The position numbers were made by a program, and so were the translations under genes. Positions 5,237 to 26,669 of a DNA stretch of 28,668 nt are shown here, in pieces. This DNA comes from an uncultured archaeon. GTDB taxonomy: Archaea > Asgardarchaeota > Thorarchaeia > Thorarchaeales > CAZPUN01. The stretch spans positions 1 through 28,668 of the forward strand of contig CAZPUN010000044.1 in NCBI GenBank assembly GCA_964589775.1, in the 5' to 3' direction. Each line of letters begins with the position of its first letter. The stretch's first letter is position 1. The notes under the pieces are model-generated. The model made no database searches and was not told the DNA's origin. It saw nothing but the letters and a program-made list of their open reading frames with translations.

Positions 5237-5809
5237 ATGAGCGATATAGATCTCACGGACCGGCTTAAAATATTAGTGGAAAAGACTATAAAACTATTAG
5301 AACTCAGGAAATATAGAGTATATTCCGAAGATACTGACAAAATTCCTGCAGAGATTTTAGCCGAGAGTACAGATCCTCGCAAGCCCGGTAAATATGTGAT
5401 TTGGGTTTATCCCGAGACAAAGACAATTGGTGTTGCTGGTATTCGTGAATTAAAGAAAGCCATTGACGAAGAAGGCGCCGATAGAGGTATGATTGTTGGG
5501 ATTCAACGCCTTACACCTGCCGCTGTAAGAGAATCTCGTGCATACAATATTGAGCTGGTCAGAGGCGGATTTGCATCATTTAGTCTTCTCAGTCATGAGC
5601 TTGTACCGAAGCATGAAATACTCACGCCTGAAGAAGTACGAGAACTTCTTCAAAAATACGGTATTACAAAGGATAAACTACCCAGAATTTTCGAAAGTGA
5701 CCCTGCGGCGAAGATAATTGGTGCCAAGCCCGGTGATGTTTTGAAAATCACTAGAAAGAGCGATGTTTCAGGTATATCCATTTATTATCGCGTTGTTGTT
5801 TCAGAGTGA
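5237..5809 (+). CDS. rpoH: DNA-directed RNA polymerase subunit Rpo5/H, long eukaryote-like (RPB5) form with N-terminal restriction-endonuclease-fold jaw domain
   Basis: C-terminal signature 'HELVPKHEIL..E..ELL.KY....LPRI..SDP.A...GAKPGDV.KITRKS..SG...YYRVV'. The N-terminal ~110 aa resembles Mrr/RPB5-N ('IGVAGIRELKKAIDEEGADRGMIVG...LTPAA...NIELV'). Confidence 0.93.
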   Translation: MSDIDLTDRLKILVEKTIKLLELRKYRVYSEDTDKIPAEILAESTDPRKPGKYVIWVYPETKTIGVAGIRELKKAIDEEGADRGMIVGIQRLTPAAVRESRAYNIELVRGGFASFSLLSHELVPKHEILTPEEVRELLQKYGITKDKLPRIFESDPAAKIIGAKPGDVLKITRKSDVSGISIYYRVVVSE

Positions 5810-5955: not shown

Positions 5956-6801
5956 ATGCAGAATCTTTCAGATGCCCATATTCTAAGTGTCGTGATTATA
6001 TTATTGATGATTACTGCTGTTCCAATTAATGTAAGTGCAAGTGGGCATGGTATGGATACTTCAAACATTAAATTGACATATCATTGTAGCGTTGAAAACC
6101 GCATTGTTAGTGATAATAAGGTTGAAAAATCAATTTTATATGGTCTGGTAGGAATCACCGTGTTAAATTTATCTGGTTCGCATGATGAAATCATAGAGAT
6201 CAATGAAGTATATTTAAATGAAAATACAACTTCACTCATAAAAAACAGCACACGATATATTAACGCACATGAATCCCATTTAAAGCTAAATATGTCTATT
6301 GTTGATTCTGATATGAATGGATATGCAGATCATATCTTCGTTATGCTTGAAAATACTTCGTGGTGGAATGGCGAAGGTATATGGTATCTAGATAAAAATT
6401 GGGATGTTGATAGTTCCGATTGGATAAATATTACTTCAAAATTTGCTCAACAACCATTGATTAAGTCTATTAGGACTGAAATAAATGAGGGCCTTTATCA
6501 TTTTGAAATATCTGTTTTCAGTGAATTTGATTTTAATAATGATACAATAAAAGAGCGTGGAATAACAACAATTAGAGAAACTGCACATTATGCTTATTCG
6601 GGTTGGTTAAATTATTACATTCACAAAGAAACTACCGAAATCTGTGATGGGATAAACACATGGTATGCTGAACGAACAATTCTCATACAGCTTGACGGCA
6701 CATTATCTCCACCAGAGATCATGGCACTTCAACAAAATAGCATATATTTACTTGGTGCTCTAATAATATTTATTATAATATTGGTGAAAAGAAAGAAATA
6801 G
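5956..6801 (+). CDS. Secreted, C-terminally anchored surface protein of unknown function
   Basis: Signal peptide ending near 'VSA-S'; beta-rich body; DxDxNG-type loop 'DSDMNGYAD'; C-terminal TM helix followed by KRKK. Confidence 0.65.
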   Translation: MQNLSDAHILSVVIILLMITAVPINVSASGHGMDTSNIKLTYHCSVENRIVSDNKVEKSILYGLVGITVLNLSGSHDEIIEINEVYLNENTTSLIKNSTRYINAHESHLKLNMSIVDSDMNGYADHIFVMLENTSWWNGEGIWYLDKNWDVDSSDWINITSKFAQQPLIKSIRTEINEGLYHFEISVFSEFDFNNDTIKERGITTIRETAHYAYSGWLNYYIHKETTEICDGINTWYAERTILIQLDGTLSPPEIMALQQNSIYLLGALIIFIIILVKRKK

Positions 6802-6859
6802 AAAATAAACATATATATTATTGTTCAAAAAAATTAAAATTCATCGGGATGATTATTAA

Positions 6860-7930
6860 ATGTGGTTATTGGGAATACTGGTAGTTGAAACAATATTCAT
6901 ATTGCTATACATCAGAGCCAGTTATTTCCATTTAAAATCTTATGGCGATTTTGACCGTATTAATATATTTTTGCGAGATCTGCTCGTGTTATTGTTTGTA
7001 TTCATTTATTATTTATATTGCATATTTTATACATTTGGGGTTGATGTTACAATCTCCAATATTATTATTGATATTGTTTCTACACTCGCAATTTTTATAT
7101 TTCTGTATTCTGAAGGATACTTCTTTGAATTTCAAAAATTAGAATATTGGCTAACTATTTATTTTGGTTTTGGATTTACCATATCTTTATACTTGTTACG
7201 GCTTGTATTTTTTGATAATACTTTTTATTTACCTAATTTTGATATGATATCCCATGTTCAAGTCTATGGTTCTATCATAATATTATTTATTGTTTCTCTT
7301 AATCATATTTATGCGGCATACAAATTCAAAAAGAAACGATACAAGGATTTTATTTCTTTATTTATTATTAATTTAGGCATATTATTCACTCCTACTTCTA
7401 GGCACATTCAATTTATGAATTCAGATGTTGAAATGATAAAAAGCATTATTTTATTCGCTCTAATTATTGTATTTTTGCCAAGAATGCTAAATCTTGAATT
7501 CATGACGCATCTTAATCTATACATGATTTCAATTTCGAGTAAAAATGGAGATTTCTTTTATATACTTAATTTTCTAAAATCAAAGATTTCTAATAAAGAA
7601 CTTGTACCATTTGTTGCTTCATCTTTCAATGCATTGGAGAATTTTTCATCAAAACAGCCCATTAAAATGATTCATATGGCGAATTATACAATTTTTTCTA
7701 ATAATGACGAAATTGTAAACATATTCATAATTATTGATCGTCCCACTAAAATTATACATACGATTTTTAAGCGATTAAATTCTCCAAAATTAGCAGCTAT
7801 TGTCGATAAAGAAATATTTCACGATGATTATGAAATGCAAAAATCTGTCATTCGTTCATTAATTCAAAAAGCATTCTATCCATATACAAAAATTAATACT
7901 AAAAATGATTTTATATATCGAATAGAATAG
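6860..7930 (+). CDS. 7-TM membrane protein with C-terminal longin/roadblock-like cytoplasmic domain
   Basis: Seven hydrophobic segments in aa 1-207, then a soluble domain from ~aa 218: 'LYMISISSKNGDFFY...ELVPFVASSFNALENF...IKMIHMANYTIF...IFIIID', matching the beta-beta-alpha-beta-beta-beta-alpha longin-like order. Confidence 0.6.
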   Translation: MWLLGILVVETIFILLYIRASYFHLKSYGDFDRINIFLRDLLVLLFVFIYYLYCIFYTFGVDVTISNIIIDIVSTLAIFIFLYSEGYFFEFQKLEYWLTIYFGFGFTISLYLLRLVFFDNTFYLPNFDMISHVQVYGSIIILFIVSLNHIYAAYKFKKKRYKDFISLFIINLGILFTPTSRHIQFMNSDVEMIKSIILFALIIVFLPRMLNLEFMTHLNLYMISISSKNGDFFYILNFLKSKISNKELVPFVASSFNALENFSSKQPIKMIHMANYTIFSNNDEIVNIFIIIDRPTKIIHTIFKRLNSPKLAAIVDKEIFHDDYEMQKSVIRSLIQKAFYPYTKINTKNDFIYRIE

Positions 7931-7975
7931 TAATTTTTATAATATGATTAAAAACATAATATACTTGGTGTATTT

Positions 7976-9085
7976 ATGAGCGACTTTGTTTATGGGATTA
8001 CAATATTATTCATCGGTATTGCATCAATACTAATTATAACAATACATAAAGAATCAAAATTAAATATATGGCCTGACGGTCGCTTTATAATAAACACTAG
8101 TATTACTTTTGGCTCTATTGCATCGATCTTAATTGGTATTTTTGAAATCTATGAATCTATTCCCGTATTACTGTTTGCAATATTTTTCTCTGGCTTATCA
8201 ATTTCATTTATATTTGGTGGATTTATTAACTTAAATCGAGAAAAGGTATTCCGTCAGTTAATTGGATTTATTGGTATTACTTCTGGATTTATGAACGCGT
8301 TATTATTATTTACACCACTCAAGGTATTATATGATAATTTAAAAATTGGTATATTTCCCGGTCATGCGTTTCTATCACTTATATTTTATACTCTTTTTCT
8401 AGTAGGTATAATAAAAATTTTTTATATAATTGATTTATACTCTTATTCATATAAACAATATTTTCGTGTTTATTTGTTATTTTCATTATATGCGTTATGT
8501 ATTTTCATATTGCCATCAATAATATTTTTTAATTTGTTTTATTCCCCAAGCTTAATTTGGATTACTGCGTCTGAATTTAGTTTTTCACTTGGTTGGCTAT
8601 TCTTAAGTTTGCTTACTCTTGATGAAAATATATTACAAGTATTTCTTCCCTTTGTGGATTTATATTTTGTACAAGCTAACATTGCGGGCGGAATTAATCT
8701 TTTTACAATTTCATATAAAAAAACAGACCTCGATTTTGATTTTGTTTCTGCTTTAGTATCTTCATTAAACAATGCATTGGAAATGATTATTCCTGAGACT
8801 GAGTATTTTGTTTATACGATCTCACTTCACGATAAGATATTATTGGTGATACATAATCCAAAATCTCCATTGTATTATGTAGCAGCTGCAAAATCCTATC
8901 CTGTTAATTTAAAAATTGCAGCTCACAATCTTCTTCTCAAGGAAAGTATGATTCTAGATGAATTGTCGCAAAGCGATATATTTTCTATGTCACCGGAGCT
9001 TACAACCAAGATACTTGAAATTCTTCTTGACAGCTTTGGTAAGCGTTTGGGCTTTAAAATTGTTGAGAGTGTGGCTAATTTCTAA
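7976..9085 (+). CDS. 7-TM membrane protein with C-terminal longin/roadblock-like cytoplasmic domain
   Basis: Seven hydrophobic segments, then from ~aa 227 'LYFVQANIAGGINLFT...DFDFVSALVSSLNNALEMI...YTISLHDKILLV...YYVAAA'. Same architecture as the upstream gene. Confidence 0.62.
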   Translation: MSDFVYGITILFIGIASILIITIHKESKLNIWPDGRFIINTSITFGSIASILIGIFEIYESIPVLLFAIFFSGLSISFIFGGFINLNREKVFRQLIGFIGITSGFMNALLLFTPLKVLYDNLKIGIFPGHAFLSLIFYTLFLVGIIKIFYIIDLYSYSYKQYFRVYLLFSLYALCIFILPSIIFFNLFYSPSLIWITASEFSFSLGWLFLSLLTLDENILQVFLPFVDLYFVQANIAGGINLFTISYKKTDLDFDFVSALVSSLNNALEMIIPETEYFVYTISLHDKILLVIHNPKSPLYYVAAAKSYPVNLKIAAHNLLLKESMILDELSQSDIFSMSPELTTKILEILLDSFGKRLGFKIVESVANF

Positions 9086-9446: not shown

Positions 9447-10805
9447 ATGCCGATCCGGAGTGTTTTTGATAGATTTGAAGAAATTAAGCCATCTATGTCG
9501 GAAAAGATCGAGCGTAATTCCGTTTCTATATCTGTTATTAGTTCTCTTGATGAAAGTGGGATTACCATAAATAATGCAACCGTCATGGGCGGGCAGGATT
9601 TAATTAAAGATGAAGATGTTAGATTAGAGGCTGAGGCTGGGTTTGTGCAGTTAAATATTGTTGATCTATTTGAACTGAGAAAACATGTATTACATTCAAT
9701 CAAGTACACGCCAGAGCAGATCCATGGTACAACGGATCTTGTCTCAAACATATATCAAGTTAAAGCGAGAAAAGAAAGTACGTATTATCTTGGTTTATTA
9801 GTTACGCCGTATCATGATATTAATCTCACTAAATATGAGGAATTTATCGATTTCGCATGTTCGGCATATTATGGTACTCTCCATAGGTCTATTACTCAGA
9901 TGCAACAAGGCCAATTAACTGAAAAAGAAGTTTACGAGCAACTAGATGAAACTTCTTCATCTATTATGTCCCTATTAGCACATTTACTCTTTAAGCGACG
10001 GGAACTAGCAGGTGGTCCGGAATCCGTAGGCGTGCCAACTTATTTCTTTGGTTTGTTAATTTTTGACTATGAGATTATTCCTGCTAAGCGAATTTGTATG
10101 AATGATTCATGTAAGTCTGTGTATGATATTGATGAAGTAAATTCCGACACATGTCCTCGATGTGGCTCAGAATTGAGTTATCTTCCTCCCGATGTTGAAT
10201 TTCAGCGTGTTTCACTTGTATTTCCGAAAGAATCTATACACTATTTAACTACTAACTATGAAGTGCCTCGAGATATTGTCTCACTTTTTGAATTATCTCG
10301 TATTCCCTCTAGCGTTATGTTATCCATTAATCTAATGAATCAGGAGATTTTTTCGCATTATATCTACTTACCTAGCAGAGCCGTATTGCTTCACAGAAAT
10401 GGAAAAGACATATTGACTATCGATGCATTATCCAAGCGAGTTGAAAATAAAATCCGCGTTGTTGTAGCATTAACTGATAGTGTTCCCAAAACTGAGAATC
10501 TCATTGGTTTTATGCCCATGCGAACGTTCTTGAGAGATCTTCGTGAGGGATTTGGCAAAGGCATAGATATTGATGAGATACTCTCAAAATCAATCGTGTC
10601 GGACTGGATTAAAACACCGTTCTTTAAACCGGGCGATGCAACACTTGATGATTTTGGCTCGCTTTTTGAAGTTTTAGGAATTGAAATTCCCAAGCGTGAA
10701 GATAGTCTGGATACATCACATGAAGAAGAATCATCCGAAGTCGATGCAGAGGCTGAAGATAGCGACAGAGTCGCTGCAGACAATGAACACGTAGAGGTGG
10801 ACTAA
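9447..10805 (+). CDS. Hypothetical protein: probable tandem longin/uDENN-like domains with inserted C4 zinc ribbon and acidic tail
   Basis: Long ORF with C217-x4-C222-x13-C236-x2-C239; two alpha/beta segments opening with a hydrophobic strand plus D ('SVISSLDESGITI', 'FFGLLIFD...VSLVFP'); very acidic last ~35 aa. The CDS is solid, the fold call is tentative. Confidence 0.5.
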   Translation: MPIRSVFDRFEEIKPSMSEKIERNSVSISVISSLDESGITINNATVMGGQDLIKDEDVRLEAEAGFVQLNIVDLFELRKHVLHSIKYTPEQIHGTTDLVSNIYQVKARKESTYYLGLLVTPYHDINLTKYEEFIDFACSAYYGTLHRSITQMQQGQLTEKEVYEQLDETSSSIMSLLAHLLFKRRELAGGPESVGVPTYFFGLLIFDYEIIPAKRICMNDSCKSVYDIDEVNSDTCPRCGSELSYLPPDVEFQRVSLVFPKESIHYLTTNYEVPRDIVSLFELSRIPSSVMLSINLMNQEIFSHYIYLPSRAVLLHRNGKDILTIDALSKRVENKIRVVVALTDSVPKTENLIGFMPMRTFLRDLREGFGKGIDIDEILSKSIVSDWIKTPFFKPGDATLDDFGSLFEVLGIEIPKREDSLDTSHEEESSEVDAEAEDSDRVAADNEHVEVD

Positions 10806-10807
10806 AA

Positions 10808-12022
10808 ATGGATACATTCAGCAATATTGTTAGCGAGTTCAAGACAAAATTTGAGAGCCCCTTAAATCAAATGGAAAAAATGAAAGAATCGCAAAAGATA
10901 CTTATATCGCGAGATATAAAGAGGCATTCTGCAGCGATTGCTACTTTGAAATTGAATGAAGACGAGGTTTTTGATGCTTTTACTGCCTATAGATATTTTA
11001 CTTTAAATCATCTTGTGCCTGAAAATTACAATCCGATCCATCTGACAAAAGACTTAGAAAACTTGCGGAAGTTAATTGTGGCTGGTGGGGGAAAAGCCGT
11101 TAGCACTTTACAAGCTGCCGCTTATTTATCACAACAGATCGTTGCGGCAGTTTCTGCAGCATTTGATGCATTTACAATCCTGTTGGATGAAAAGACTTCT
11201 GGGACGCAAGACCATATTGTTCGTGCAATAATGATTCGTAAGAAGTTAATGCCGGCGTTGCAGAAGATTTCTGAATTTATAATTAAGGATAGTTTAATTG
11301 ATATTCGCTGGGGTGCAACGCTTCTTAAGATGGGCTATGCAACCTTGTTTAGAATTAAAAACACTTCATATTCGTTCTCAAATATCAGTTATGAATTTGA
11401 TAAATTTAAGAAGATCTATCCGCTCGACAAAGGTTCAGAGTACTATTGGGATATTATATATCATTTTGTACTTAAGGATGTTTATGAAAAGCTAAAGATT
11501 CTTGGTAAGGATATAATCGATGAGCGTGTTCAAAAGTTGGAATCCGGGCGTCAAGCATCCCGCGGATTAGTACGTTCATATCGCCGACCATCAAGCTCGC
11601 AAGGAGTCGATATGCCTACTGAATCTATACTCTATGATATTTTTAAGCGGCAGGGCACATTGGACTCTGCAACTCTAAGCAAAATTGAAACCGCTTTGGA
11701 CAGAACATTTCGACAAATTGCGAATAAGAAATATGGCATGCAAGACCTTAGCGATGAATCTAAGCTAATCGAAATTGGTCTCGATATTTATACCAAGATG
11801 ATCTGGAGCTTTCCAATACTTGCATATTCTGTGATAAATCCTGTAGAATACGGGAAATTGTTGGATAATCCTGAATCCTATGTTCGTGCAAATAAGGGTG
11901 CGATAATTCAAGCAACTCGCAAGAAGCTCAACAATCTTCTCGTCGGAAGGGTCAACACACGTTCTATGGCTCGTCTAATTGCAAAATTCATTCAGAAAGC
12001 ATATGGTGCAAAAAGATATTGA
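10808..12022 (+). CDS. Hypothetical, mostly alpha-helical protein, translationally coupled to the upstream gene
   Basis: 404-aa ORF starting 2 nt after the upstream stop, with a GAGGTGG SD inside the upstream gene; amphipathic helical pattern; no motif recognised. Confidence 0.7.
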   Translation: MDTFSNIVSEFKTKFESPLNQMEKMKESQKILISRDIKRHSAAIATLKLNEDEVFDAFTAYRYFTLNHLVPENYNPIHLTKDLENLRKLIVAGGGKAVSTLQAAAYLSQQIVAAVSAAFDAFTILLDEKTSGTQDHIVRAIMIRKKLMPALQKISEFIIKDSLIDIRWGATLLKMGYATLFRIKNTSYSFSNISYEFDKFKKIYPLDKGSEYYWDIIYHFVLKDVYEKLKILGKDIIDERVQKLESGRQASRGLVRSYRRPSSSQGVDMPTESILYDIFKRQGTLDSATLSKIETALDRTFRQIANKKYGMQDLSDESKLIEIGLDIYTKMIWSFPILAYSVINPVEYGKLLDNPESYVRANKGAIIQATRKKLNNLLVGRVNTRSMARLIAKFIQKAYGAKRY

Positions 12023-12237
12023 GCTTCTGAATTTTTATTACTTAATTCAATTATGCGAGATCATTTCGTTTCCGATATTTGTTGTTGTAGTATCTAATTT
12101 TTTTATACTATTTTTGAGTTTTAATTTTCAAATATAATTATGATTTGTTTGTCAATTAATTAAAATATACACTTTAGCCTTAATATTTTTAAGTAAATAC
12201 TTTCTTGAAATCTTAGAAAGCAAAGAGAGTGATTCTC

Positions 12238-13026
12238 ATGGTACGCATAATTGTTCCTGTGAAATATTCCGTTGATATTGATGAGCTTACATTTGCAAGT
12301 GATGGAACTCCAAAAATCAAAGAAGCGCCAAAGAAGATAAATCCCGTTGATAAAAGTGCAATGGAAGCCGCTCTAAGAATTAAAGAAAAGCATGGCGGTG
12401 AAGTTCTTGCATTAACTGTCGGTCCTGAAGAGGCACATAAAGCACTTCGAGAAGCTCTTGCAATGGGTGCAGACGACGCATATCATGTTATTTTGCCAGA
12501 AGAGAAGAAGAAAGATACATATCTGACCGCTAAAATCTTAGCTGAAGCAATTAAGAAAATTGGTGATTTTGACCTTGTTATCACTGGAAAAATTACTGTT
12601 GATGGCTGGACCGGTGTTGTGAGTATCCGCCTGGCTGAAGAATTAGGTCTTCCAAATCTCGGATTCACTGCTAAATTAGAAGTTGAGGACAAAAAGGTAA
12701 AAATTAGACGTGACATGGGCGGATATATTGAGGAAGTCGAAGCCGAATTTCCCGTAGTACTAAATGTAGTCCAACCAATTTATGAGCCCCGTCTTGTAAA
12801 TGTTATGAAACTAATGAAAGCTATGAAGCGGCCCATTCATAAATGGACTGTTGAAGAATTAGGTTTCACTGATTCTGATATTGAAGATGCTAAGACCTTA
12901 GAATTGCTTGATCTCCGTTATCCCCAGATTGAGCGTAAGAAGATCAAGATTGAAGAAGAAGATCCAAAAGCAGCTGCACAGAAACTTGTTGAATTACTCA
13001 TGAAAGATGGAGTACTTTCGAAGTAG
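12238..13026 (+). CDS. etfB: Electron transfer flavoprotein subunit beta (EtfB/FixA)
   Basis: 'INPVDKSAMEAALRIKE', 'LREALAMGADDA', 'DLVITGKITVDGWTG', 'EPR'. ATG 12238 is preferred because the GTG at 12229 sits within the SD-like GAGTGA. Confidence 0.95.
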   Translation: MVRIIVPVKYSVDIDELTFASDGTPKIKEAPKKINPVDKSAMEAALRIKEKHGGEVLALTVGPEEAHKALREALAMGADDAYHVILPEEKKKDTYLTAKILAEAIKKIGDFDLVITGKITVDGWTGVVSIRLAEELGLPNLGFTAKLEVEDKKVKIRRDMGGYIEEVEAEFPVVLNVVQPIYEPRLVNVMKLMKAMKRPIHKWTVEELGFTDSDIEDAKTLELLDLRYPQIERKKIKIEEEDPKAAAQKLVELLMKDGVLSK

Positions 13027-13039
13027 GTGGTGAAGAATA

Positions 13040-14017
13040 ATGAGTGATTATAATGGTGTATTGGTTTATTCAGATGTTCCCAAAATTCGACTACAAATGA
13101 TTACTGCTGGAAAGAAGATCACGTCAAAGCTTGGTGGCGATGTTTCTGTTTTATTGTTTGGTAGTTCCGTATCTGAAGACGAGATCAATGAAGTTGCCAA
13201 ACACGGTGCGGATAAAATAATTGTAATTGAGAATGAGAATCTCAAGCAATTTGACCCAATAAGCTATACTGATGCATATCAAGCTGCTGTAGAAAAGATC
13301 AAGCCCAAATATGTCTTATTCGGCGGCACTCGACCTGCAGTTGAAAGTGCTCCACGACTTGCAACTCGCTACAAGACCGGTGTTGTGTTTGGTTGTGGTG
13401 CTCTTGTAATTGATGAGGAAAATAATACAGTCATCTGTGGTCGCGTAGCAATGGGTGGCAAAGCGATATCAAAAGAACGAATAATCAAATATCCCGGTGT
13501 ATTGATTGTTCCTGGTGGTGTTCACAACATTCCCGAAGAAACTGAAGCAAAGGCGGAAATAATTAAAATTACAGATGCGAAGATTTCCGAGCCCAAGATA
13601 AAGCAAGTCAATAAAATTGCAAAAGAAAAGAAAGGAATTCCACTCAATGAAGCCGAAAAGATCGTTGGAGTCGGTCGTGGCTTTAAGAAGCAGGAAGATC
13701 TTGAAATGGCAAATGAGCTTGCCAAAGTTCTCGGTAATGCTGTTGTAGGCGCAACACGACCGCTTGCCGCTGATTACGGCTGGTTCAAAGAATGGATCGG
13801 AATTTCCGGAATTGTTGTTCGACCTAAGTTGTATTTTGCAATTGGGATCTCTGGAGCCGCCCAACATGTCATGGGCGTAAAGGACGCAAATACGATTATT
13901 GCAATAAACAAGAATCCCGATGCGGACATATTCGAGTTTTCTGATTATAATGTTGTCGGCGACTTGTATCAGATTCTTCCTGAAGTCGTTAATGAGTTAA
14001 GGAATAAGTTGAGTTAA
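13040..14017 (+). CDS. etfA: Electron transfer flavoprotein subunit alpha (EtfA/FixB)
   Basis: 'LNEAEKIVGVGRG', 'VGATRP', 'PKLYFAIGISGAAQHVMG', 'IIAINKNPDADIF...VGDL'; GGTGGTGA SD upstream. Confidence 0.95.
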   Translation: MSDYNGVLVYSDVPKIRLQMITAGKKITSKLGGDVSVLLFGSSVSEDEINEVAKHGADKIIVIENENLKQFDPISYTDAYQAAVEKIKPKYVLFGGTRPAVESAPRLATRYKTGVVFGCGALVIDEENNTVICGRVAMGGKAISKERIIKYPGVLIVPGGVHNIPEETEAKAEIIKITDAKISEPKIKQVNKIAKEKKGIPLNEAEKIVGVGRGFKKQEDLEMANELAKVLGNAVVGATRPLAADYGWFKEWIGISGIVVRPKLYFAIGISGAAQHVMGVKDANTIIAINKNPDADIFEFSDYNVVGDLYQILPEVVNELRNKLS

Positions 14018-14030
14018 AGCTCAATCAATC

Positions 14031-14046
14031 TTTTTATTTTTTATTT
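14031..14046 (+). terminator. Probable oligo-T terminator after etfA
   Basis: T-rich tract tttttattttttattt just downstream of the etfA stop. Confidence 0.45.
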
Positions 14047-14067
14047 GGTTCTAATTCCAAACTAAGA

Positions 14068-14076
14068 TTTTATATA
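14068..14076 (+). promoter_or_regulatory. Probable TATA box for the AOR-HPS gene
   Basis: TTTTATATA about 100 nt upstream of ATG 14176 and downstream of the etfA terminator. Confidence 0.4.
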
Positions 14077-14175
14077 CTACAATAGTTGAGAAGAACATGA
14101 AGTATATGTCTTAGGAAAAATCTTAATATCAAGTTACCTTTGGCATGAATAGCCTCAGTCTAGGGGTTTGAAATT

Positions 14176-16698
14176 ATGGAAAGAAGCATTTTCGGTTATG
14201 TTGGTAAACTCTTACGTGTAAATTTAACAACTGGTGAACTTAAATCTGAACCACTTGACATTTCAATTGCGGAGCAGTATCTTGGTGGTCGAGGATATGC
14301 TGCAAAGCTCTTATATGATAATTTACCGCCTCGGATAGATCCCTTATCTCCTGAAAATATCCTGATTTATATGACCGGTCCTCTTACTGGTACTGCCGCA
14401 CCAACCTCTGCACGTTTCACAATATCTACAAAGAGCCCACTAACAGGTCTAATAAACGACTCCAGTATTGGCGGTTTTATGGGTCCTGCAATCAAGCGTG
14501 CTGGTTTTGATGGTTTCATTTTCGAAGGTAAAAGCAATAAACCAGTTTATCTGTTCGTTAATGAAGGTAAGGCAGAACTTTTGGACGCCTCGGAAATCTG
14601 GGGCAAAACCGTCTATGAAGCTGCGGAATACTTGAAGAAGAAACACGGTAATGACATCAGAATGGCGATCATCGGACCTGCAGGCGAGAATATGGTACGA
14701 TTTGCATCTATTATGATTGATGAGCATCGAGCTGCAGGACGCGGTGGAACCGGAGCCGTTATGGGTTCAAAGAATCTTAAGGCAGTTGTTGTTAAGGGTC
14801 GCATCCCAATAAAAGTTGCTAATAAGTTTGCATTTCTAAAACTCGTAAAAAATGCAACTGAGGTTCTTAAAGGTCATCCTGTAACAGGAACAGGTCTTGA
14901 ACGCTATGGAACTGGCATCCTGACACATCTTGTGAATAAGAGTGGTGTTCTTCCCGTTCGGAACTTCCAAGATGCCTCTGTAGAAGATGCTGAACCCATT
15001 AGTGGAGAATACATTCACGAAAAAATGTTGATTAAAGCTAAAGGATGTTATGGTTGTCCAATTCGGTGTGACCGTCTTACGGAAGTTCGGGAAGGAAAAT
15101 TCAAGGGACTTAAGGTCCATGGGCCTGAATACGAAACCATATGGGCATTCGGTCCAAATTTGGATAATCTGGATATTGGATACATTGCGAAAGCAAACGA
15201 CCTCTGTGATGCTCTCGGTATGGACACAATAACAATGGGTGCAGTAATGGCATTTCTGATGGAAGCAAAAGAAAAGGGAAAGATTCCCCCTGAACTTGAT
15301 AAGGAATTGAATATCAAGTGGGGCGATATGGAAACTGTTCTTAAATTAATCGAGGATACCGCATTCCGACGTGGAATTGGTAATTACCTTGCTGAGGGCA
15401 GCAAGAGACTTTCTGAGCAATGGCATGCAGAAGAACTCGCAATGCACGCAAAGGGTCTTGAGATACCTGCATATGACCCTCGTGGATTGAAAGGTATGGC
15501 GCTTTCATATGCGGTATCTAACAAGGGCGGCGACCACCTCCGTGCATATATAGTAGCTTCTGAAATTGGGAGTATGCCTCGTTATCTTGATCCAAATACA
15601 ACTGAGGGCAAAGCAGCTCTGGTTAAGCGAATGCAAGATGTCTTTGCAGTGATCGACTCAATAGGTTTATGTAAGTATACAAGCTTTGCATTCTTTGACA
15701 CGCTGAATTACGAGGCTGAAATGTATGCTAAGTTAGTTACAACAGCAACTGGATTTTACTTTGATGAGAAAATAATTTCTGAAGTCGGCGAGCGAATCTA
15801 CAACTTGGAACGGCTTTTCAATATTCGTGAAGGATTCACATACAAGGACGACACATTACCTGAGCGCTTTAAGACCGATCCAATCAAACATGGTCCAGCA
15901 CAGGGTAAAACCGTAGATGTTGCACCAATGGTTCTTGAATATTACAAGGTGCGCGGTTGGACTCCTGATGGAATTCCTATGGAGAAGACCTTATCGCGAT
16001 TGGGCATTGAGACACCTGAAGTCAATCGTCCAATGCTTCAAGTTGCACTTGACCTGCGAAGTTTAGATGAAGCTATGAAAATTGCAGAAAAGTGTCACGA
16101 GGGCGGAATTGACATATTAGAAGCTGGTACTCCACTCATTAAACAGAATGGTATGGAGGCAGTCGAACGGCTCAGGAAGACATTTCCAAACGCACTTATC
16201 CTCGCAGACCTCAAAACTATGGACACGGGTTGGCTAGAAACCGAAATTGCAGCTCAAGCAGGTGCTGACATTGTTGCAATTCTTGGTGTAGCCGATGATG
16301 GAACCATAAAGGATGCAGTTGGAGCAGCTCGAAAATATGGCGTAAAAATCATGATTGACATGATAAATCATCCAGACCCAATCAAGAGAGCAAAAGAAGT
16401 TGAGAAACTCGGTGTCGATATCGTAGCAGCACACGTAGGAATTTCTAAGCAGATGCGAGAACGCGAAATTAATCAGCGAGTTGAGGAGATCAAAAAGCTG
16501 GTTAAGGCAGTTAACATACCGGTTTCTGTGGCTGGTGGAATTCGCCTCGAGGCAATTCCTGCACTCGTCAAAGCTGGTGTGAAAATCATCGTGGTCGGTG
16601 GTGCAATAACTCGTTCCTCAGACCCTGGTGAAGCAACACGCATGATGAAAGATGCAATCATAAAAACCTATGCAGAAATAGAATCTAAAGAAAAATAA
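14176..16698 (+). CDS. Fusion protein: tungsten-type aldehyde:ferredoxin oxidoreductase (aa ~1-612) + 3-hexulose-6-phosphate synthase (aa ~619-835)
   Basis: AOR motifs 'KSPLTG', 'GRGG.GAVMGSKNLKA', 'CYGCPIRC', 'EYET', 'DALGMD', 'DSIGLC'. HPS/OMPDC-family motifs 'LQVALD', 'LEAGTPLI', 'ADLKTMDTG', 'VAGGI', 'VGGAIT'. One uninterrupted reading frame. Confidence 0.93.
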   Translation: MERSIFGYVGKLLRVNLTTGELKSEPLDISIAEQYLGGRGYAAKLLYDNLPPRIDPLSPENILIYMTGPLTGTAAPTSARFTISTKSPLTGLINDSSIGGFMGPAIKRAGFDGFIFEGKSNKPVYLFVNEGKAELLDASEIWGKTVYEAAEYLKKKHGNDIRMAIIGPAGENMVRFASIMIDEHRAAGRGGTGAVMGSKNLKAVVVKGRIPIKVANKFAFLKLVKNATEVLKGHPVTGTGLERYGTGILTHLVNKSGVLPVRNFQDASVEDAEPISGEYIHEKMLIKAKGCYGCPIRCDRLTEVREGKFKGLKVHGPEYETIWAFGPNLDNLDIGYIAKANDLCDALGMDTITMGAVMAFLMEAKEKGKIPPELDKELNIKWGDMETVLKLIEDTAFRRGIGNYLAEGSKRLSEQWHAEELAMHAKGLEIPAYDPRGLKGMALSYAVSNKGGDHLRAYIVASEIGSMPRYLDPNTTEGKAALVKRMQDVFAVIDSIGLCKYTSFAFFDTLNYEAEMYAKLVTTATGFYFDEKIISEVGERIYNLERLFNIREGFTYKDDTLPERFKTDPIKHGPAQGKTVDVAPMVLEYYKVRGWTPDGIPMEKTLSRLGIETPEVNRPMLQVALDLRSLDEAMKIAEKCHEGGIDILEAGTPLIKQNGMEAVERLRKTFPNALILADLKTMDTGWLETEIAAQAGADIVAILGVADDGTIKDAVGAARKYGVKIMIDMINHPDPIKRAKEVEKLGVDIVAAHVGISKQMREREINQRVEEIKKLVKAVNIPVSVAGGIRLEAIPALVKAGVKIIVVGGAITRSSDPGEATRMMKDAIIKTYAEIESKEK

Positions 16699-16718
16699 AA
16701 ATAAAAATTGATGAACTC

Positions 16719-18064: not shown

Positions 18065-18170
18065 TTTTTTAACAATCTCGATCTCTTTCTCTTTTCACAT
18101 ATAATAGTTAGATATAAAAGTAATTTTTGAAAATGTCTTTTTGGGGTACTAATTCAGGCAAGTGTTTCAA

Positions 18171-19838
18171 ATGAGTAATTCCTATTCTATTGACAAGATT
18201 CTTCAAAATGGAGAAACCGATATTTCTGAGTTTAAATTACGATTGACTGAGGCTGATTTGAAAGGCTCGCGTAAGCAGAGCCTAATTGCTAGAATTAAAT
18301 TCATGACTCAAGATGATGCTGAGGCAATTTATCTAATTGGTATAGATGATATTGAAGGAAAGAAATGGAAGGTCCATGGCTTATCTCTTAAAGAATTAAA
18401 TAGATCCGCCGAAATTTTGCAGAAATTATGTGACGAAGCAGGCGTAGATATAATTGAAGAAGTACATATTCAGACCGAGAAAGGCATTGTTGGTAAGTTT
18501 ATACTGAGGCGGCGTCCTATTGAAGAAGTTGGAGAAACCATTAGCATAAACGTTGCAGGTCGTGTAAATGCAGGTAAATCCACATTGATAGGGACTTTAA
18601 TTACACAGCAGCTTGATGATGGTAGTGGTAAAACCCGAACATATCTCTTGCGACATCCTCATGAGATTCGCAGAGGTCAGACTTCAGACATTCATATTGC
18701 GTTCATTGCCTTTGATAAGAATGGGAATGTTATGCCGTTTCGTAATCCTCTAGATAAAGAGGAATGCGGTCGAAAACTCGATATGGCTGCGAAAATCGTC
18801 ACGTTGTTTGATGCTCCCGGTCATGCCGAATTTTCCAAAACCATGATTAGGAGTATTCTCGGTGCCGACGCGCAATATGGAATGATTTTGATTCCTGCGC
18901 CTGAAGAAGCAAAACTAGCTTGGACCTATGCTGAACGCACTGGAATTGTCAGATTGGATGAGATCTCTAGAGAGCACATGATTCTAATGGGCAATCAAGA
19001 ACTACCCATGTTTATAGTGATTTCGAGAATTGATGTTGCAACGAATAAGGAACTCGAATTCACTCGCTCATTAGTTAAAAAAACATTACGGGATATTGGG
19101 AAGATCCCACTGCACGTTTCAGACAAAAAGGACCTTGACACAATTACCAAAGAACTCGTACATCGTGCGATTGTTCCGATTTTTGAGGTGTCTACCGTAT
19201 CTGGTGAGGGTTTGGAGTTATTAACCGCATTCATTTCGAAATTAAAGCCTACGATCGAATCTGACATATCTGAAAAGCCTGCTCTTGCATATGTTGATAA
19301 AGTTTATCGGGGTATTCCGGGTACGCATGTAGTAGTTACAGGCACGGTATATCAAGGTATATTTAAGGATGGGCAAAGAGTCCTTGTTGGGCCTGATGTT
19401 TCTGGGAAATACCATATTGGTAGAATCGCAAGTATCGAGATGTTCAAAAAGAGGGTTGAAAAGGTTAAACCTGGCGATTCATTCGGTTTTGATATTAAAG
19501 GAGTTGATTCGCAAATAATTCGTCGCGGGATTATCATAGGGGATCCTGATGTGGAAGTAAGTCCATGCCGTGAATTCGAGGCGAACATTGTTGTCACCAA
19601 GCATGCGCGACGGATTACAGAAGGGTATTCTCCAGTTTATCATAGCCATACGATTCATCAGACTGTTGAGTTAGTGAAAATTTACGGAAAGGATTATCTT
19701 ACAGTTGGTGATTTCGCACAGGTACGTATTAGATTCATCAAGCATCCTGAGAATGTTTATGTCGGTGATAAGTTAGTTCTGCGAGAAGCAAATACAAGAG
19801 CAATTGGAACAGTAAAAGAAATAATAAAAAAAGAATAA
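18171..19838 (+). CDS. GTPBP1/GTPBP2-like translational GTPase (EF-Tu superfamily)
   Basis: N-terminal GTPBP-type domain 'EFKLRL...EAIYLIGIDD'; G1 'GRVNAGKST', G2 'HEIRRGQTS', G3 'DAPGH', G4 'SRID', G5 'VSTVSG'; EF-Tu-like barrels II/III. Alternative GTG start at 18162. Confidence 0.88.
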   Translation: MSNSYSIDKILQNGETDISEFKLRLTEADLKGSRKQSLIARIKFMTQDDAEAIYLIGIDDIEGKKWKVHGLSLKELNRSAEILQKLCDEAGVDIIEEVHIQTEKGIVGKFILRRRPIEEVGETISINVAGRVNAGKSTLIGTLITQQLDDGSGKTRTYLLRHPHEIRRGQTSDIHIAFIAFDKNGNVMPFRNPLDKEECGRKLDMAAKIVTLFDAPGHAEFSKTMIRSILGADAQYGMILIPAPEEAKLAWTYAERTGIVRLDEISREHMILMGNQELPMFIVISRIDVATNKELEFTRSLVKKTLRDIGKIPLHVSDKKDLDTITKELVHRAIVPIFEVSTVSGEGLELLTAFISKLKPTIESDISEKPALAYVDKVYRGIPGTHVVVTGTVYQGIFKDGQRVLVGPDVSGKYHIGRIASIEMFKKRVEKVKPGDSFGFDIKGVDSQIIRRGIIIGDPDVEVSPCREFEANIVVTKHARRITEGYSPVYHSHTIHQTVELVKIYGKDYLTVGDFAQVRIRFIKHPENVYVGDKLVLREANTRAIGTVKEIIKKE

Positions 19839-24132: not shown

Positions 24133-25125
24133 TCATATTATTTTATTTTCTCTATACCATGCAATTGTTTCTTTCATGCCTTCTGGAAGCGTATATTTCG
24201 GTTGGTAGTTCAAGTATTTCTTTGCTTTTGCATTGCTATATGCTCTGTGATTTCTCATTTCTTCAACTACTTTTTTGTGAATTACGAAATTATCAATCCC
24301 TTTGCGGTTGTTTCGCCATTCTAAGTATCCAATGTACATCTTAGCTAGAAACATAGGTGCGGATTTTGTTGGAGCTGGTGCGTTAAGTAAATTCGCTATG
24401 ATTGTAAAGGCTTCCCTGTATGTGTAATAGTCATCGCTCGAAATAATGAATGTTTCTCCAATTGCCTTTCTAGGATTGCGTAGGGCTTTTACAAAACCGT
24501 GTGCAATGTCCTTCACGAACGTAAAATGAATATATTTATCACCTTTGCCTGGGAGTCTAGTCAATCGTCCTTTTAGGATCGTATCGATTATTGATATTGA
24601 TATGTATTGATCTCGAGGCCCATAAATACCCGTAGGTCTGATAATTGTCATGGGAAATCCTGTTTCTTCATACATTCTTTTAAGTGCTTGTTCGAGCATT
24701 AATTTGGTTTTGCCATAGTCAAAAACCGGATTACATGGGTATGTTTCATCGGCAGGTGGATTTTCAACAGGACCAATGGCTTCCGTAGAACTTGTGGCGA
24801 TAAAGTGTTTAACGCCATTTCGTTCTGCATCTTCTGCGAGAATTTGCGTGGCTTTTACATTTGGAGTATATAATTCTTTTAAATGTGTATGGAATTTCAT
24901 TTTTGCTGCCAAATGAATAACCACATCTATGTCTTGTGTTATGTTTTTCAGGGTTTCCGGTTTGTTGAGGTCCGCATATCTAATCTCAACACCTTGTTGT
25001 TCAAACTTTTTGGCTTTCTCTTTATTGCGAGCCATGCCTATAATCTCAATTGATTCATCGTTTCTTAATATATCAAAAACATGTGATGCAACGAAGCCCG
25101 TAATTCCTGTAATTAGAACTCTCAT
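24133..25125 (-). CDS. Extended SDR, NAD-dependent epimerase/dehydratase or 3-beta-HSD-like
   Basis: 'TGITGFVA', 'DVVIHLAA', 'SST', 'YGKTK' (YxxxK), 'RPTGIYGP'; ATGA overlap with the upstream luxC-like gene. Confidence 0.88.
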   Translation of the reverse strand: MRVLITGITGFVASHVFDILRNDESIEIIGMARNKEKAKKFEQQGVEIRYADLNKPETLKNITQDIDVVIHLAAKMKFHTHLKELYTPNVKATQILAEDAERNGVKHFIATSSTEAIGPVENPPADETYPCNPVFDYGKTKLMLEQALKRMYEETGFPMTIIRPTGIYGPRDQYISISIIDTILKGRLTRLPGKGDKYIHFTFVKDIAHGFVKALRNPRKAIGETFIISSDDYYTYREAFTIIANLLNAPAPTKSAPMFLAKMYIGYLEWRNNRKGIDNFVIHKKVVEEMRNHRAYSNAKAKKYLNYQPKYTLPEGMKETIAWYRENKII

Positions 25126-26669
25126 TTATCGGTCGCCTCAAAAATTGTATTCGCAGTCCTGATTACGTTTTTAATATCTGTATCAATATTTACGGTATTT
25201 ATCGTCAGCCATCGAAGCTTATTTGGCATGTAAAATTCTAAGATTGGTATTCTGCCATCCCATGATTCTTTGAGCCTAGGCAAATTAACAGTTCCAATAA
25301 CTCTTATGTTTGAAACTCCCATTTTTCCTGCTCTATTTGCAAAATTAAGTAGCCTCTTCTGTGGTATTGCAGCTCCTATTGTATCATAAAATTCTTGCCA
25401 TTTCTGGGTTAATTTGAACGCATCATGTATATTATTAACAGGGATTATTCGCAATATTCTATGTTGTGATGGGATTACCTTCCTTTCAGGATCATAAATT
25501 ATTGCAAAGTCATATTCCGGTTCTGCAAAAACTCGCTCATCATCTATCATGCTGGCAAATAAGTTTGCTAACTCCTGCTCTCGTAGTGCTTTATAATATT
25601 CAGATTGGGGTAACTTCTTAGAGATTTTCTTTCCTTGTTCGACCATAAATTCAAAGAATTCCTCCGGCGTTGCTTCGCCTCCTTCCTCAACAAAAAATCC
25701 AAGAACTGGCGCAGGATTCATACGTCCTTCATACCCAAAACCATCAATGACAGCTAATTTTGCTATATCTTCATTAACGTATTCTTTTGAAATAATGTCG
25801 AAGCTTACTCTTCCACCATGGCACGCTAAATATACATTTGAAGTGATCCATAATGATCTTCTAGCCTTCTTTTTAATGTATCTACAAAAGTCTCCAGATG
25901 TGTTGAGTTTGTTTTCTAACGCTACGATTATTGAATCTGAATTCTTGAAGATTATGTTATCAATTTCATCATCTCGTTTATACCATGGAAGAACAAAAAT
26001 CATGTTGGCCAATTCTTTATCAACTTCGAAAATGGATTCTGCAATTAATGCTGCAAAAAATGGTTGGCATCGTGGATTTTTTATGATCACTCCACTTCTA
26101 TTTTCAATACCTATCCATATGCCATACATTGCAATTAGTCCGATTGCGTTCGGGGGAGATAATAGCGTTAAGATTTTATGTGAACCTGTTTTAAAGTTCA
26201 TTCTTTTAACTTTAAACTTATCAATTATACTTCCAAATGCCTTAATAATTAGATTTTCTTCATTAATGGTTGAAAAATTGTATATTCCGCTTTTTATTTT
26301 TTCAAAAGTATCTGCAATATTAATAAGTTCTGGTCGAACGTTATCAAGTATCTTAAATTGATAAAATTCAAGTATTTCTTTGGAATAATTCGTATATTTT
26401 GGTAATAGTTCTATTGCTATTTTTCGTTTATCATAATTGGGGTCCTGCCACTTTTTAAGGACTTTCATAAAAATTTCTTTAATATATTCATCAGAATATT
26501 CTAAAAATGATTCATGAATATCTCTTATGCGCCTAATTATATCTAAGACATGTTCCGCTGTTAGTCTAGGAAGCATTAATGTATGCCCATCTAAAACAAG
26601 CTCATCTTTTGGGATATTCATTTCAATATCATATGCAATTGGTGGAATAAAGTACGTATTTATTTTCAT
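25122..26669 (-). CDS. LuxC-like acyl-CoA/acyl-protein reductase (ALDH fold), divergent
   Basis: LuxC-type layout 'PPNAIG...VIIKNP..QPFFA.L.AES...D.ELA....VLPW', 'HGGRVSF.II', C-terminal 'GVSNI..IG......WDG'; coupled to the luxE-like gene. Expected catalytic Cys is not evident. Confidence 0.68.
   Translation of the reverse strand: MKINTYFIPPIAYDIEMNIPKDELVLDGHTLMLPRLTAEHVLDIIRRIRDIHESFLEYSDEYIKEIFMKVLKKWQDPNYDKRKIAIELLPKYTNYSKEILEFYQFKILDNVRPELINIADTFEKIKSGIYNFSTINEENLIIKAFGSIIDKFKVKRMNFKTGSHKILTLLSPPNAIGLIAMYGIWIGIENRSGVIIKNPRCQPFFAALIAESIFEVDKELANMIFVLPWYKRDDEIDNIIFKNSDSIIVALENKLNTSGDFCRYIKKKARRSLWITSNVYLACHGGRVSFDIISKEYVNEDIAKLAVIDGFGYEGRMNPAPVLGFFVEEGGEATPEEFFEFMVEQGKKISKKLPQSEYYKALREQELANLFASMIDDERVFAEPEYDFAIIYDPERKVIPSQHRILRIIPVNNIHDAFKLTQKWQEFYDTIGAAIPQKRLLNFANRAGKMGVSNIRVIGTVNLPRLKESWDGRIPILEFYMPNKLRWLTINTVNIDTDIKNVIRTANTIFEATDK

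Follow-up and report, generated by a model that had tools for sequence, protein, structure and literature searches.

A conserved archaeal fusion of an aldehyde:ferredoxin oxidoreductase with 3-hexulose-6-phosphate synthase, a candidate enzyme for pentose synthesis with oxidation of formaldehyde

Many archaea make pentoses by cleaving a hexulose phosphate, a reaction that releases formaldehyde, and to our knowledge the disposal of this aldehyde in organisms without Fae has so far been a matter of conjecture in genome papers. In such papers, separate aldehyde:ferredoxin oxidoreductases (AORs) were proposed to oxidize the formaldehyde derived from the ribulose monophosphate (RuMP) pathway (PMC9723716, PMC8065059). 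The locus described here raises the question of whether both steps could be carried by one polypeptide: on a contig of an uncultured Thorarchaeales archaeon (CAZPUN010000044.1; its 28,668 nucleotides are hereafter the window), a single gene joins an AOR to an HPS (3-hexulose-6-phosphate synthase). An earlier, sequence-only reading had seen in its product an H4MPT-independent, formaldehyde-oxidizing analogue of Fae-Hps.

The AOR-HPS fusion is a genuine and conserved architecture

The fusion frame runs from an ATG start over 840 codons with no internal stop (table 1), and its AFOR_N and AFOR_C matches cover the full Pfam models. The motifs pointed out by the sequence-only reading were all recovered by a sequence check, namely CYGCPIRC (residue 291), EYE (318), DALGMD (345), and DSIGLC (494), as was the linker GIETPEVNRP (residue 610), and its description of one frame joining a complete AOR to a full HPS barrel is borne out by the AFOR_N, AFOR_C, and HPS matches. 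Within the AFOR_C part, D345-D350 (DALGMD) and D494-C499 (DSIGLC) align to 1aor, and E320 and H454 to E313 and H448 of this Pyrococcus furiosus AOR; following the 1aor literature, we take E320 and H454 to be the catalytic Glu/His pair and DxxGL(C/D) to be the pterin-phosphate motifs. The cysteines C291, C294, C298, and C499 are invariant, together with E320 and H454, in an alignment of 24 fusion proteins.

The C-terminal half matches Pfam OMPdecase at residues 619-823 (142 bits) and positions 1-205 of TIGR03128 RuMP_HxlA, with 217.3 bits for the protein and 221.4 bits in a search of the genome DNA, for a curated equivalog cut-off of 200 bits. Its residues D626, E649, D678, K680, D683, and H753 do not vary among the 24 fusions and have aligned counterparts in 9lj9 and 3ajx; they correspond to the residues for metal binding and catalysis in HPS/KGPDC enzymes (Asp in QVAxD, Glu in ExGTP, DxKxxD, and His). 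In the AF2 model of the fusion protein (pLDDT 88, pTM 0.83), both halves match solved folds according to Foldseek, the AOR half with a TMt of 0.96 to 1aor, 9mqx, and 9g7j and the HPS half with a TMt of 0.90 to 3ajx. A docking prediction of one half against the other, with domain alignments as input, scored 0.01, a value that speaks neither for nor against a contact between them.

Table 1. Features of the fusion gene and its upstream region (positions in the window).
Feature	Position	Strand	Basis or remark
etfB	12229-13026	+	Pfam ETF / ETF_alpha search of the etfBA pair
etfA	13040-14017	+	Pfam ETF / ETF_alpha search of the etfBA pair
Intergenic region	14018-14175	+	Read from sequence
AOR-HPS fusion gene	14176-16698	+	Single open frame, 840 aa
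AFOR_N domain	14203-14799	+	Residues 10-208, Pfam PF02730, 278 bits
AFOR_C domains 2 and 3	14839-16008	+	Residues 222-611, Pfam PF01314, 484 bits
C291-x2-C294-x3-C298, three of four [4Fe-4S] cysteines	15046-15069	+	Aligned to 1aor CxxCxxxC
C499, fourth [4Fe-4S] cysteine	15670-15672	+	Aligned to 1aor cysteine
Six-residue insertion, residues 507-512	15694-15711	+	F507 and L510 invariant, then invariant E513
Short interdomain linker, residues 612-618	16009-16029	+	5-8 residues in 24/24 aligned fusion proteins
HPS domain	16036-16659	+	NCBIfam TIGR03128 RuMP_HxlA match

As the source is a single MAG contig, an assembly or frameshift error at the junction has to be considered, as does the production of two proteins through an internal start at Met620, with which a 234-aa NCBI record (P0123) that covers the HPS portion of a homologue from Methanomethylicota would fit. 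However, four independent assemblies of ~95%-identical relatives span the junction with the fusion intact, a 3081-nt Logan contig of depth 9, which may derive from the source sample, crosses it without any difference, and the same join is found in >100 database clusters. P0123 itself sits within a continuous frame of 850 codons, so that its separate record is an annotation choice. Just as the sequence-only reading had remarked, neither a stop nor a Shine-Dalgarno-like motif lies ahead of Met620 (nt 16033), and the internal start is not conserved, because this position is K, R, or Q in the orthologues. An artefact or a pair of separate proteins is thus largely refuted already, and we consider it scarcely credible. 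Beyond this contig, a second run gave two short Logan fragments.

The same architecture was found in 112 of the 120 best database clusters, which come from Methanomethylicia, Nezhaarchaeota, Bathyarchaeia, Hadarchaeia, Thermoplasmata, and Asgard archaea, and continuous fusion ORFs were recovered from named genomes belonging to several phyla. In the AOR-domain tree, the fused domains group as one clade (99), and the HPS-domain tree recovers the same subgroups. On the alignment, the six-residue insertion after the fourth cluster cysteine is a signature of this clade: it occurs in 44/44 fused rows and is missing from 98% of 81 unfused AORs. We found neither a paper describing the AOR-HPS architecture nor a solved structure with it, in line with the earlier remark that a characterized enzyme of this kind is not known, and the fusion is apparently undescribed so far.

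Known relatives of the two halves

HPS is found in other fusions, from which the present protein differs by the partner. The Fae-HPS proteins of methanogens and other H4MPT users (NF009833 / PRK13307) resemble it in that HPS is joined to a formaldehyde-removing domain, within a reverse-RuMP synthesis of pentoses that keeps free formaldehyde low. However, their partner is an N-terminal Fae of 160 aa, a domain with neither redox activity nor a metal cofactor that catalyzes the condensation of formaldehyde and H4MPT, whereas here it is a pterin/[4Fe-4S] oxidoreductase of 610 aa, predicted to give formate and reduced ferredoxin. As a matter of fact, NF009833 matches the HPS half only (positions 171-379, 172 bits for a cut-off of 274), and the Fae domain (PF08714 / TIGR03126) is absent from the fusion protein. 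The HPS-PHI proteins of Thermococcales (NF041755), likewise archaeal reverse-RuMP enzymes that combine HPS with a partner from the pathway, provide the closest solved HPS domain (9lj9; 222 bits, 52% identity), when 3ajx gives 147 bits. In these proteins, HPS carries at its C-terminus the enzyme of the step before, PHI, whereas here PHI is separate and HPS lies C-terminal to the oxidoreductase; NF041755 accordingly matches positions 2-212 only (218.8 bits for a cut-off of 500), with no C-terminal SIS/PHI domain in the fusion protein. Among the NCBIfam models, the HPS half scores best (251 bits, 54-58% identity) against the 430-aa HPS-RraA-like proteins of Thermoplasmata (NF005442 / PRK07028), another archaeal HPS fusion, whose partner is a C-terminal RraA/DlpA-like domain and which group in the HPS tree as a separate clade (97).

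The AOR half shares a common fold, the cluster cysteines, the pterin motifs, and the Glu/His pair with P. furiosus AOR (1aor) and the tungsten AORs 9mqx, 9g7j, and 8c0z (45-46% identity over 610 residues). These enzymes stand alone or work with electron-transfer subunits and have no lyase domain, and the fused clade adds the six-residue insertion. P. furiosus FOR (1b25), named for the oxidation of formaldehyde, belongs to the same family and fold (TMt 0.92), but the fusion falls outside the FOR clade: its AOR half scores 561-573 bits against 1aor and 9mqx, for only 360 bits and 34% identity against FOR. By sequence, the fused clade is therefore AOR-type, placed inside or adjacent to the broad-substrate AOR clade, and an assignment to a formaldehyde-oxidizing FOR type does not hold. 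With the broad-spectrum AORs as nearest relatives rather than the named FOR, specificity for formaldehyde is an assumption.

Pentose and C1 gene content, and the proposed function

To see in which pathway the fusion could operate, we considered the gene content of its genome, which is 96.75% complete, absences being judged on draft MAGs here and in the other genomes. A profile search recovered the fusion as the only HPS. PHI (TIGR03127) is encoded at C46:7973-8548 (164.5 bits for a cut-off of 160), a second SIS protein or PHI copy reaches 151.6 bits, and RpiA is also encoded. Searches of this 96.75%-complete genome yielded no transketolase, transaldolase, G6PD, or Fae; a weak match to transketolase turned out to be the E1 alpha/beta of a 2-oxoacid dehydrogenase. 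The sequence-only reading had made its proposal hinge on PHI, which is indeed present; with no Fae, second hps, transketolase, or transaldolase detected beside it, HPS would have to run toward ribulose-5-phosphate and formaldehyde in this organism.

On this basis, we regard the fusion as probably a bifunctional, pentose-forming enzyme of the reverse RuMP pathway, in which formaldehyde would be oxidized to formate and ferredoxin reduced on one polypeptide. The separate PHI would convert fructose-6-phosphate to D-arabino-3-hexulose-6-phosphate, which the C-terminal HPS barrel would cleave to ribulose-5-phosphate and formaldehyde; the N-terminal pterin/[4Fe-4S] AOR module, only 5-8 residues away, would then oxidize formaldehyde to formate with transfer of two electrons to ferredoxin. 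Ribulose-5-phosphate would proceed to ribose-5-phosphate through RpiA, and formate could be taken up by formate dehydrogenase or formate-THF ligase, for which FdhA (833 bits for a cut-off of 666) and Fhs (783 bits) are encoded. Since the predicted oxidation yields reduced ferredoxin, the disposal of formaldehyde could be energy-conserving.

Several observations temper this proposal. First, the genome encodes Mch, an H4MPT enzyme, and Fwd-like genes, with which an H4MPT-based formaldehyde sink would be chemically possible, and the spontaneous condensation of formaldehyde could compete as well. The chemistry predicted for the fusion does fit the term H4MPT-independent, but the organism has an H4MPT C1 branch, and the fusion is therefore not simply a replacement for a missing cofactor. 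The earlier comparison with Fae-Hps thus stands as regards architecture, catalytic residues, and gene content and is weakened by this branch and by the position of the AOR half outside the FOR clade. Second, among the 14 other fusion-bearing genomes, PHI is found in 12 and Fae in none, but six have a split transketolase N-subunit and both Hadarchaeia genomes are without PHI, so that the logic of an only route to pentoses is not universal.

Alternatively, the AOR module may act on other aldehydes (e.g., acetaldehyde, glyceraldehyde, or amino-acid-derived ones), in which case the two halves would share regulation or assembly and pass no metabolite. Its placement within or next to a clade of broad substrate range is consistent with this, as are the four further AOR paralogues of unassigned substrate recovered in this genome by profile search. 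However, formaldehyde is the sole aldehyde made by HPS, Fae is found in 0/15 fusion genomes, and the fused domains form one clade that has remained joined to HPS in several phyla of archaea, the short linker being fixed and the insertion next to an active-site cysteine being private to the clade, which makes this alternative unlikely.

AOR-family enzymes are reversible in principle, and the whole module could also be imagined to run the other way, with the AOR module reducing formate by means of low-potential ferredoxin and HPS fixing the formaldehyde onto ribulose-5-phosphate, as an anaerobic C1 assimilation or pentose-to-hexose module. A tethered HPS would pull the unfavorable reduction, FdhA could supply formate from CO2, and 9g7j, the closest relative with a solved structure, is an acetogen's AOR, of a type that we take to be known for reducing acids. 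However, the formate/formaldehyde couple is very negative and, with neither transketolase nor transaldolase (nor G6PD) detected in the 96.75%-complete genome, ribulose-5-phosphate cannot be regenerated; no other biosynthetic origin is evident for it, HPS is represented by the fusion alone, and pentoses are still needed. The formate-assimilating direction, which had been offered as a second possibility from the sequence, is therefore disfavored in this genome, and we hold it to be very improbable.

Coming back to the pentose-forming direction, a bolder version would be a channeling machine from which formaldehyde never leaves, the insertion after C499 contributing to an interface or tunnel that links the HPS site to the tungsten site, possibly with reversibility in vivo. 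As barrels of the HPS type have to form dimers, the geometry would depend on the oligomer. This version seems to us a long shot. If true and reversible, it would, together with low-potential ferredoxin, provide an entry point from formate to sugar phosphates, and hence an unrecognized link from C1 compounds to sugars in archaea that live anaerobically, among them relatives of the eukaryotic ancestor. More generally, the conserved fusion represents a "Rosetta-stone" link that suggests a physiological substrate, putatively formaldehyde, for one clade of the large and mostly uncharacterized AOR family, and AOR-HPS may serve synthetic C1 biology as a compact module of two steps.

Origin and genomic neighborhood

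Within the same order, 30 relatives have a different gene content: HPS is found in 0/30, transketolase in 29/30, and Fae-domain genes in 29/30, when the present lineage, as judged on its draft MAG, is without their transketolase route and Fae-domain genes. The fusion gene was probably acquired laterally by this lineage of the Thorarchaeota order. This would amount to a pathway swap within these Asgard archaea, with transketolase and Fae-domain genes in the relatives versus laterally acquired AOR-HPS and PHI here.

The position of etfBA directly upstream of the fusion led us to consider Etf as a partner. The pair is also found upstream in the ~95%-identical relatives, but it is absent from 18 other fusion loci, and the two genes are thus lineage-specific neighbors of the fusion gene. 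A T-run (14031-14049) follows the etfA stop, and a second etfAB is found elsewhere in the genome; on these grounds, Etf was rejected as a general partner. Further along the intergenic region, A/T-rich, TATA-like stretches (~14069-14078 and ~14126-14133) and a weak AGGGG located 8-12 nt upstream of the ATG suggest that the fusion gene is probably transcribed from a separate promoter.

At other loci, a search with a single protein gave only distant bacterial AOR or HPS genes, and it is an alignment query that recovered the fusion loci. An apparent second HPS following the fusion in a Hodarchaeota locus (L026) was rejected, the stretch holding a MoaD-like gene and the 229-aa ORF sitting on a branch of 6.5 substitutions. 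Next to the fusion lie MoaD-like genes in 11 of 18 loci and, in the Hodarchaeota loci, SIS/PHI genes.

The AOR-HPS frame and its two halves

From the standpoint of domain architecture, the fusion is a single frame in which the two Pfam domains of the AOR precede an OMPdecase domain (see table), and its HPS half scores 217 bits against TIGR03128, the NCBIfam equivalog model (cut-off 200 bits); the NCBIfam models of Fae-HPS, HPS-PHI and HPS-RraA align to it by their HPS halves alone. The motifs cited in the sequence-only reading were all located at their positions and, as that reading had also noted for the internal Met620, no purine-rich motif lies upstream of this codon, a position occupied by K, R or Q in orthologues. 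In each of the 24 homologues aligned, a linker of 5-8 residues leads from the last helix of the AOR to the first strand of the HPS.

On sequence comparison, the AOR half is assigned to the AOR clade and not to the FOR clade. Aligned end to end with solved tungsten AORs, it is 45-46% identical (9mqx, 573 bits; 1aor, 561; 9g7j, 537; 8c0z, 530), against 360 bits for the P. furiosus FOR, 243 for WOR5 and 222 for BamB. The cluster cysteines (three plus one), both DxxGL(C/D) motifs, and E320 and H454, the equivalents of PfAOR Glu313 and His448, are kept and invariant in 24 fusion proteins. Immediately after the fourth cluster cysteine comes a clade signature, a six-residue insertion at 507-512 (F507 and L510 invariant) followed by E513; all 44 complete fused rows have both, and 98% of 81 unfused rows do without. 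The HPS half has its nearest match in the HPS part of 9lj9, a solved HPS-PHI (222 bits), followed by 3ajx, the Mycobacterium gastri HPS (147 bits); it retains D626, E649, D678, K680, D683 and H753. An AlphaFold2 model built from a 24-row alignment (mean pLDDT 88, pTM 0.83) was compared by halves with Foldseek, matching 1aor, 9mqx and 9g7j at a TMt of 0.96 and 3ajx at 0.90; among solved structures, no single chain spanning both halves was found.

Coordinates of the fusion, its domains and other features (window positions unless a protein, locus or genome:contig is given)
Feature	Position	Strand	Details
AOR-HPS fusion	14176-16698	+	ATG start, one frame, 840 codons
AFOR_N	residues 10-208 of fusion protein		Pfam
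AFOR_C	residues 222-611 of fusion protein		Pfam
OMPdecase	residues 619-823 of fusion protein		Pfam
Met620 codon	nt 16033
Rpb5/RpoH homologue	5237-5809	+	190 aa
Five ORFs	5956-9085, 9447-12022	+	281-452 aa, no Pfam match
EF-Tu/eEF1A-family GTPase	18162-19838	+	558 aa
LuxC-like/LuxE-like pair with NAD-dependent epimerase/dehydratase	25122-27946 with 24133-25125	-
Long AOR-HPS form	L028:425-3418		990-1014 aa
Locus of P0123	L019:5950-8499		234 aa in NCBI
DHDPS-family aldolase-Fae (example)	L113:523-1971	+	~480 aa
AOR paralogues in long frames	G016:C36:97874-99724, G014:C19:52932-54779, G021:C64:7831-9681		~1220 aa, twice the usual
Longin-domain protein	L003:2313-3158 (G000, contig C17)	-

Distribution and origin of the fusion

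The fusion junction, which could have been suspected of being an assembly artefact, is not one. The 90% cluster of the protein has 3 members, an intact, ~95%-identical gene with the same neighbours occurs in four further assemblies (two NCBI MAGs and two Logan run assemblies), and a Logan contig, possibly from the source sample itself (a hydrothermal-vent metagenome), covers 15400-16700 at depth 9 with zero differences. When the architecture was sought across genomes, it recurred in several archaeal groups: AFOR_C plus OMPdecase, at ~810-840 aa, in 112 of the 120 top-ranked clusters (90% identity) of a 5.8-billion-protein collection, and, among species representatives, continuous frames in genomes labelled Methanomethylicota, Methanosuratincola, Hecatellales and Bathyarchaeia, Thermoprotei, Hodarchaeota, Hadarchaeia and 'Nanohalarchaeota', with two frameshifted ones. 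The NCBI protein P0123 ('DUF561'), considered as a split HPS, was rejected: it starts at an internal Met just ahead of the linker, within a continuous 850-codon frame, and is therefore an annotation choice. Annotations of this kind conceal the fusion in databases.

In an AOR-domain tree of 130 rows, all 46 fused rows and three truncated or frameshifted ones form a single clade (SH-like support 99), whose sister clade comprises 65 unfused AORs from archaea and bacteria. Its subgroups reappear in the HPS-domain tree (TACK-type with Hadarchaeia; Asgard with Thermoplasmata and a 990-aa form), with a few stand-alone HPS nested among them and HPS-PHI and HPS-RraA in clades of their own. The pattern is consistent with a single ancient fusion event, after which both halves co-evolved. 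The long form (P0063, P0056, P0065), a tight subclade beside the Thermoplasmata versions, carries two OMPdecase-type stretches behind its AOR half.

As for the copy in the window, its genome is the sole member of its family in the collection compared, and neither the fusion nor any HPS was found in 30 same-order genomes. Identity reaches 58% with the Methanomethylicia and Nezhaarchaeota proteins but just 51-53% with the versions from Hodarchaeales and other Asgard archaea; the full-length tree places the window's protein next to the TACK group (support 84), and a clade with the Asgard fusions, albeit a group defined after viewing the first tree, is rejected by the AU test (p = 0.0017). The gene has a G+C content of 43.3% vs 36.4 ± 3.6% for the genome's long ORFs (98.5th percentile). 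The simplest reading of these sequence data is lateral acquisition by the window's lineage.

A putative route from formaldehyde to formate

The window's genome (96.75% complete, 64 contigs) has the fusion as its sole HPS, two stand-alone SIS/PHI genes, one exceeding the TIGR03127 cut-off, and RpiA. Transketolase, transaldolase, G6PD, Fae and FocA were not found in it; the sole weak transketolase match turned out to be a 2-oxoacid dehydrogenase E1. It also encodes FdhA (833 bits vs a cut-off of 666), formate-THF ligase (783 bits) and methenyl-H4MPT cyclohydrolase (Mch) with adjoining Fwd-like genes. Among its same-order relatives, 29/30 have a full-length transketolase and 29/30 two tandem genes with Fae domains, which are DHDPS-aldolase-Fae fusions lying 7-14 kb from an AOR paralogue and may be another aldolase-formaldehyde sink pairing. 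Some AOR paralogues of relatives occupy double-length frames, which may be other AOR fusions or neighbour-gene read-through. In the 14 other fusion-bearing genomes, PHI is present in 12, a split transketolase N-subunit in six, Mch in three and Fae in none.

Since no other route to Ru5P was found in the window's genome, its HPS would have to work as a lyase, releasing one formaldehyde per pentose made; the tethered AOR half would then oxidise it to formate and reduce ferredoxin. This is the best-supported function and a fairly probable one, given the cleavage direction, the tethering of the AOR 5-8 residues away, the absence of Fae from all fusion genomes examined and the presence of formate consumers. 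The sequence-only reading had also proposed the reverse, with formate reduced and assimilated onto Ru5P, a reading disfavoured in a genome that could not regenerate Ru5P. As for its view of formaldehyde oxidation as an H4MPT-independent analogue of Fae-HPS, the proposed chemistry indeed dispenses with H4MPT, but the host has an H4MPT branch, so that a missing cofactor alone does not explain the fusion. AOR-HPS would work likewise but is not a member of the Fae-HPS family; we rate it as belonging with a known kind, the bifunctional HPS fusions.

The proposal that formaldehyde from the RuMP pathway is oxidised by AORs, as separate proteins, is found in genome papers (PMC9723716; PMC8065059; PMC11291895). 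A full-text literature search found no mention of a fused AOR-HPS gene, and database names describe one half or the other. The window contributes the Thorarchaeota-order host with H4MPT genes, the evidence of lateral acquisition and of a transketolase-to-RuMP swap, and the AOR-clade assignment with its clade-specific insertion.

Gene neighbourhood

Directly beside the fusion, 11 of 18 other loci carry a MoaD/ThiS-like gene, and the Hodarchaeota fusion is grouped with a double-SIS gene, PFK and glycogen phosphorylase; none of these neighbours the window's fusion. There, an upstream etfBA pair with a T-run behind it is lineage-specific. Of the five Pfam-less ORFs, the first three lie in a 24-31% G+C stretch, and the last two, immediately upstream of etfBA, are kept in the 95% relatives, as is the placement next to the fusion of the GTPase, which has an N-terminal extension of ~125 residues. 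The LuxC-like acyl-CoA reductase and LuxE-like acyl-protein synthetase, a fatty-aldehyde-forming pair in an archaeon with five AOR genes, stand beside an NAD-dependent epimerase/dehydratase. The Rpb5/RpoH homologue joins a restriction-endonuclease-like (Mrr_cat) N-terminal domain to a C-terminal Rpb5, a two-domain arrangement resembling eukaryotic Rpb5, here in an Asgard genome. Elsewhere in that genome, a longin-domain (FUZ/MON1/HPS1-type) protein, a typical Asgard 'eukaryotic signature' gene, lies beside the second PHI copy.
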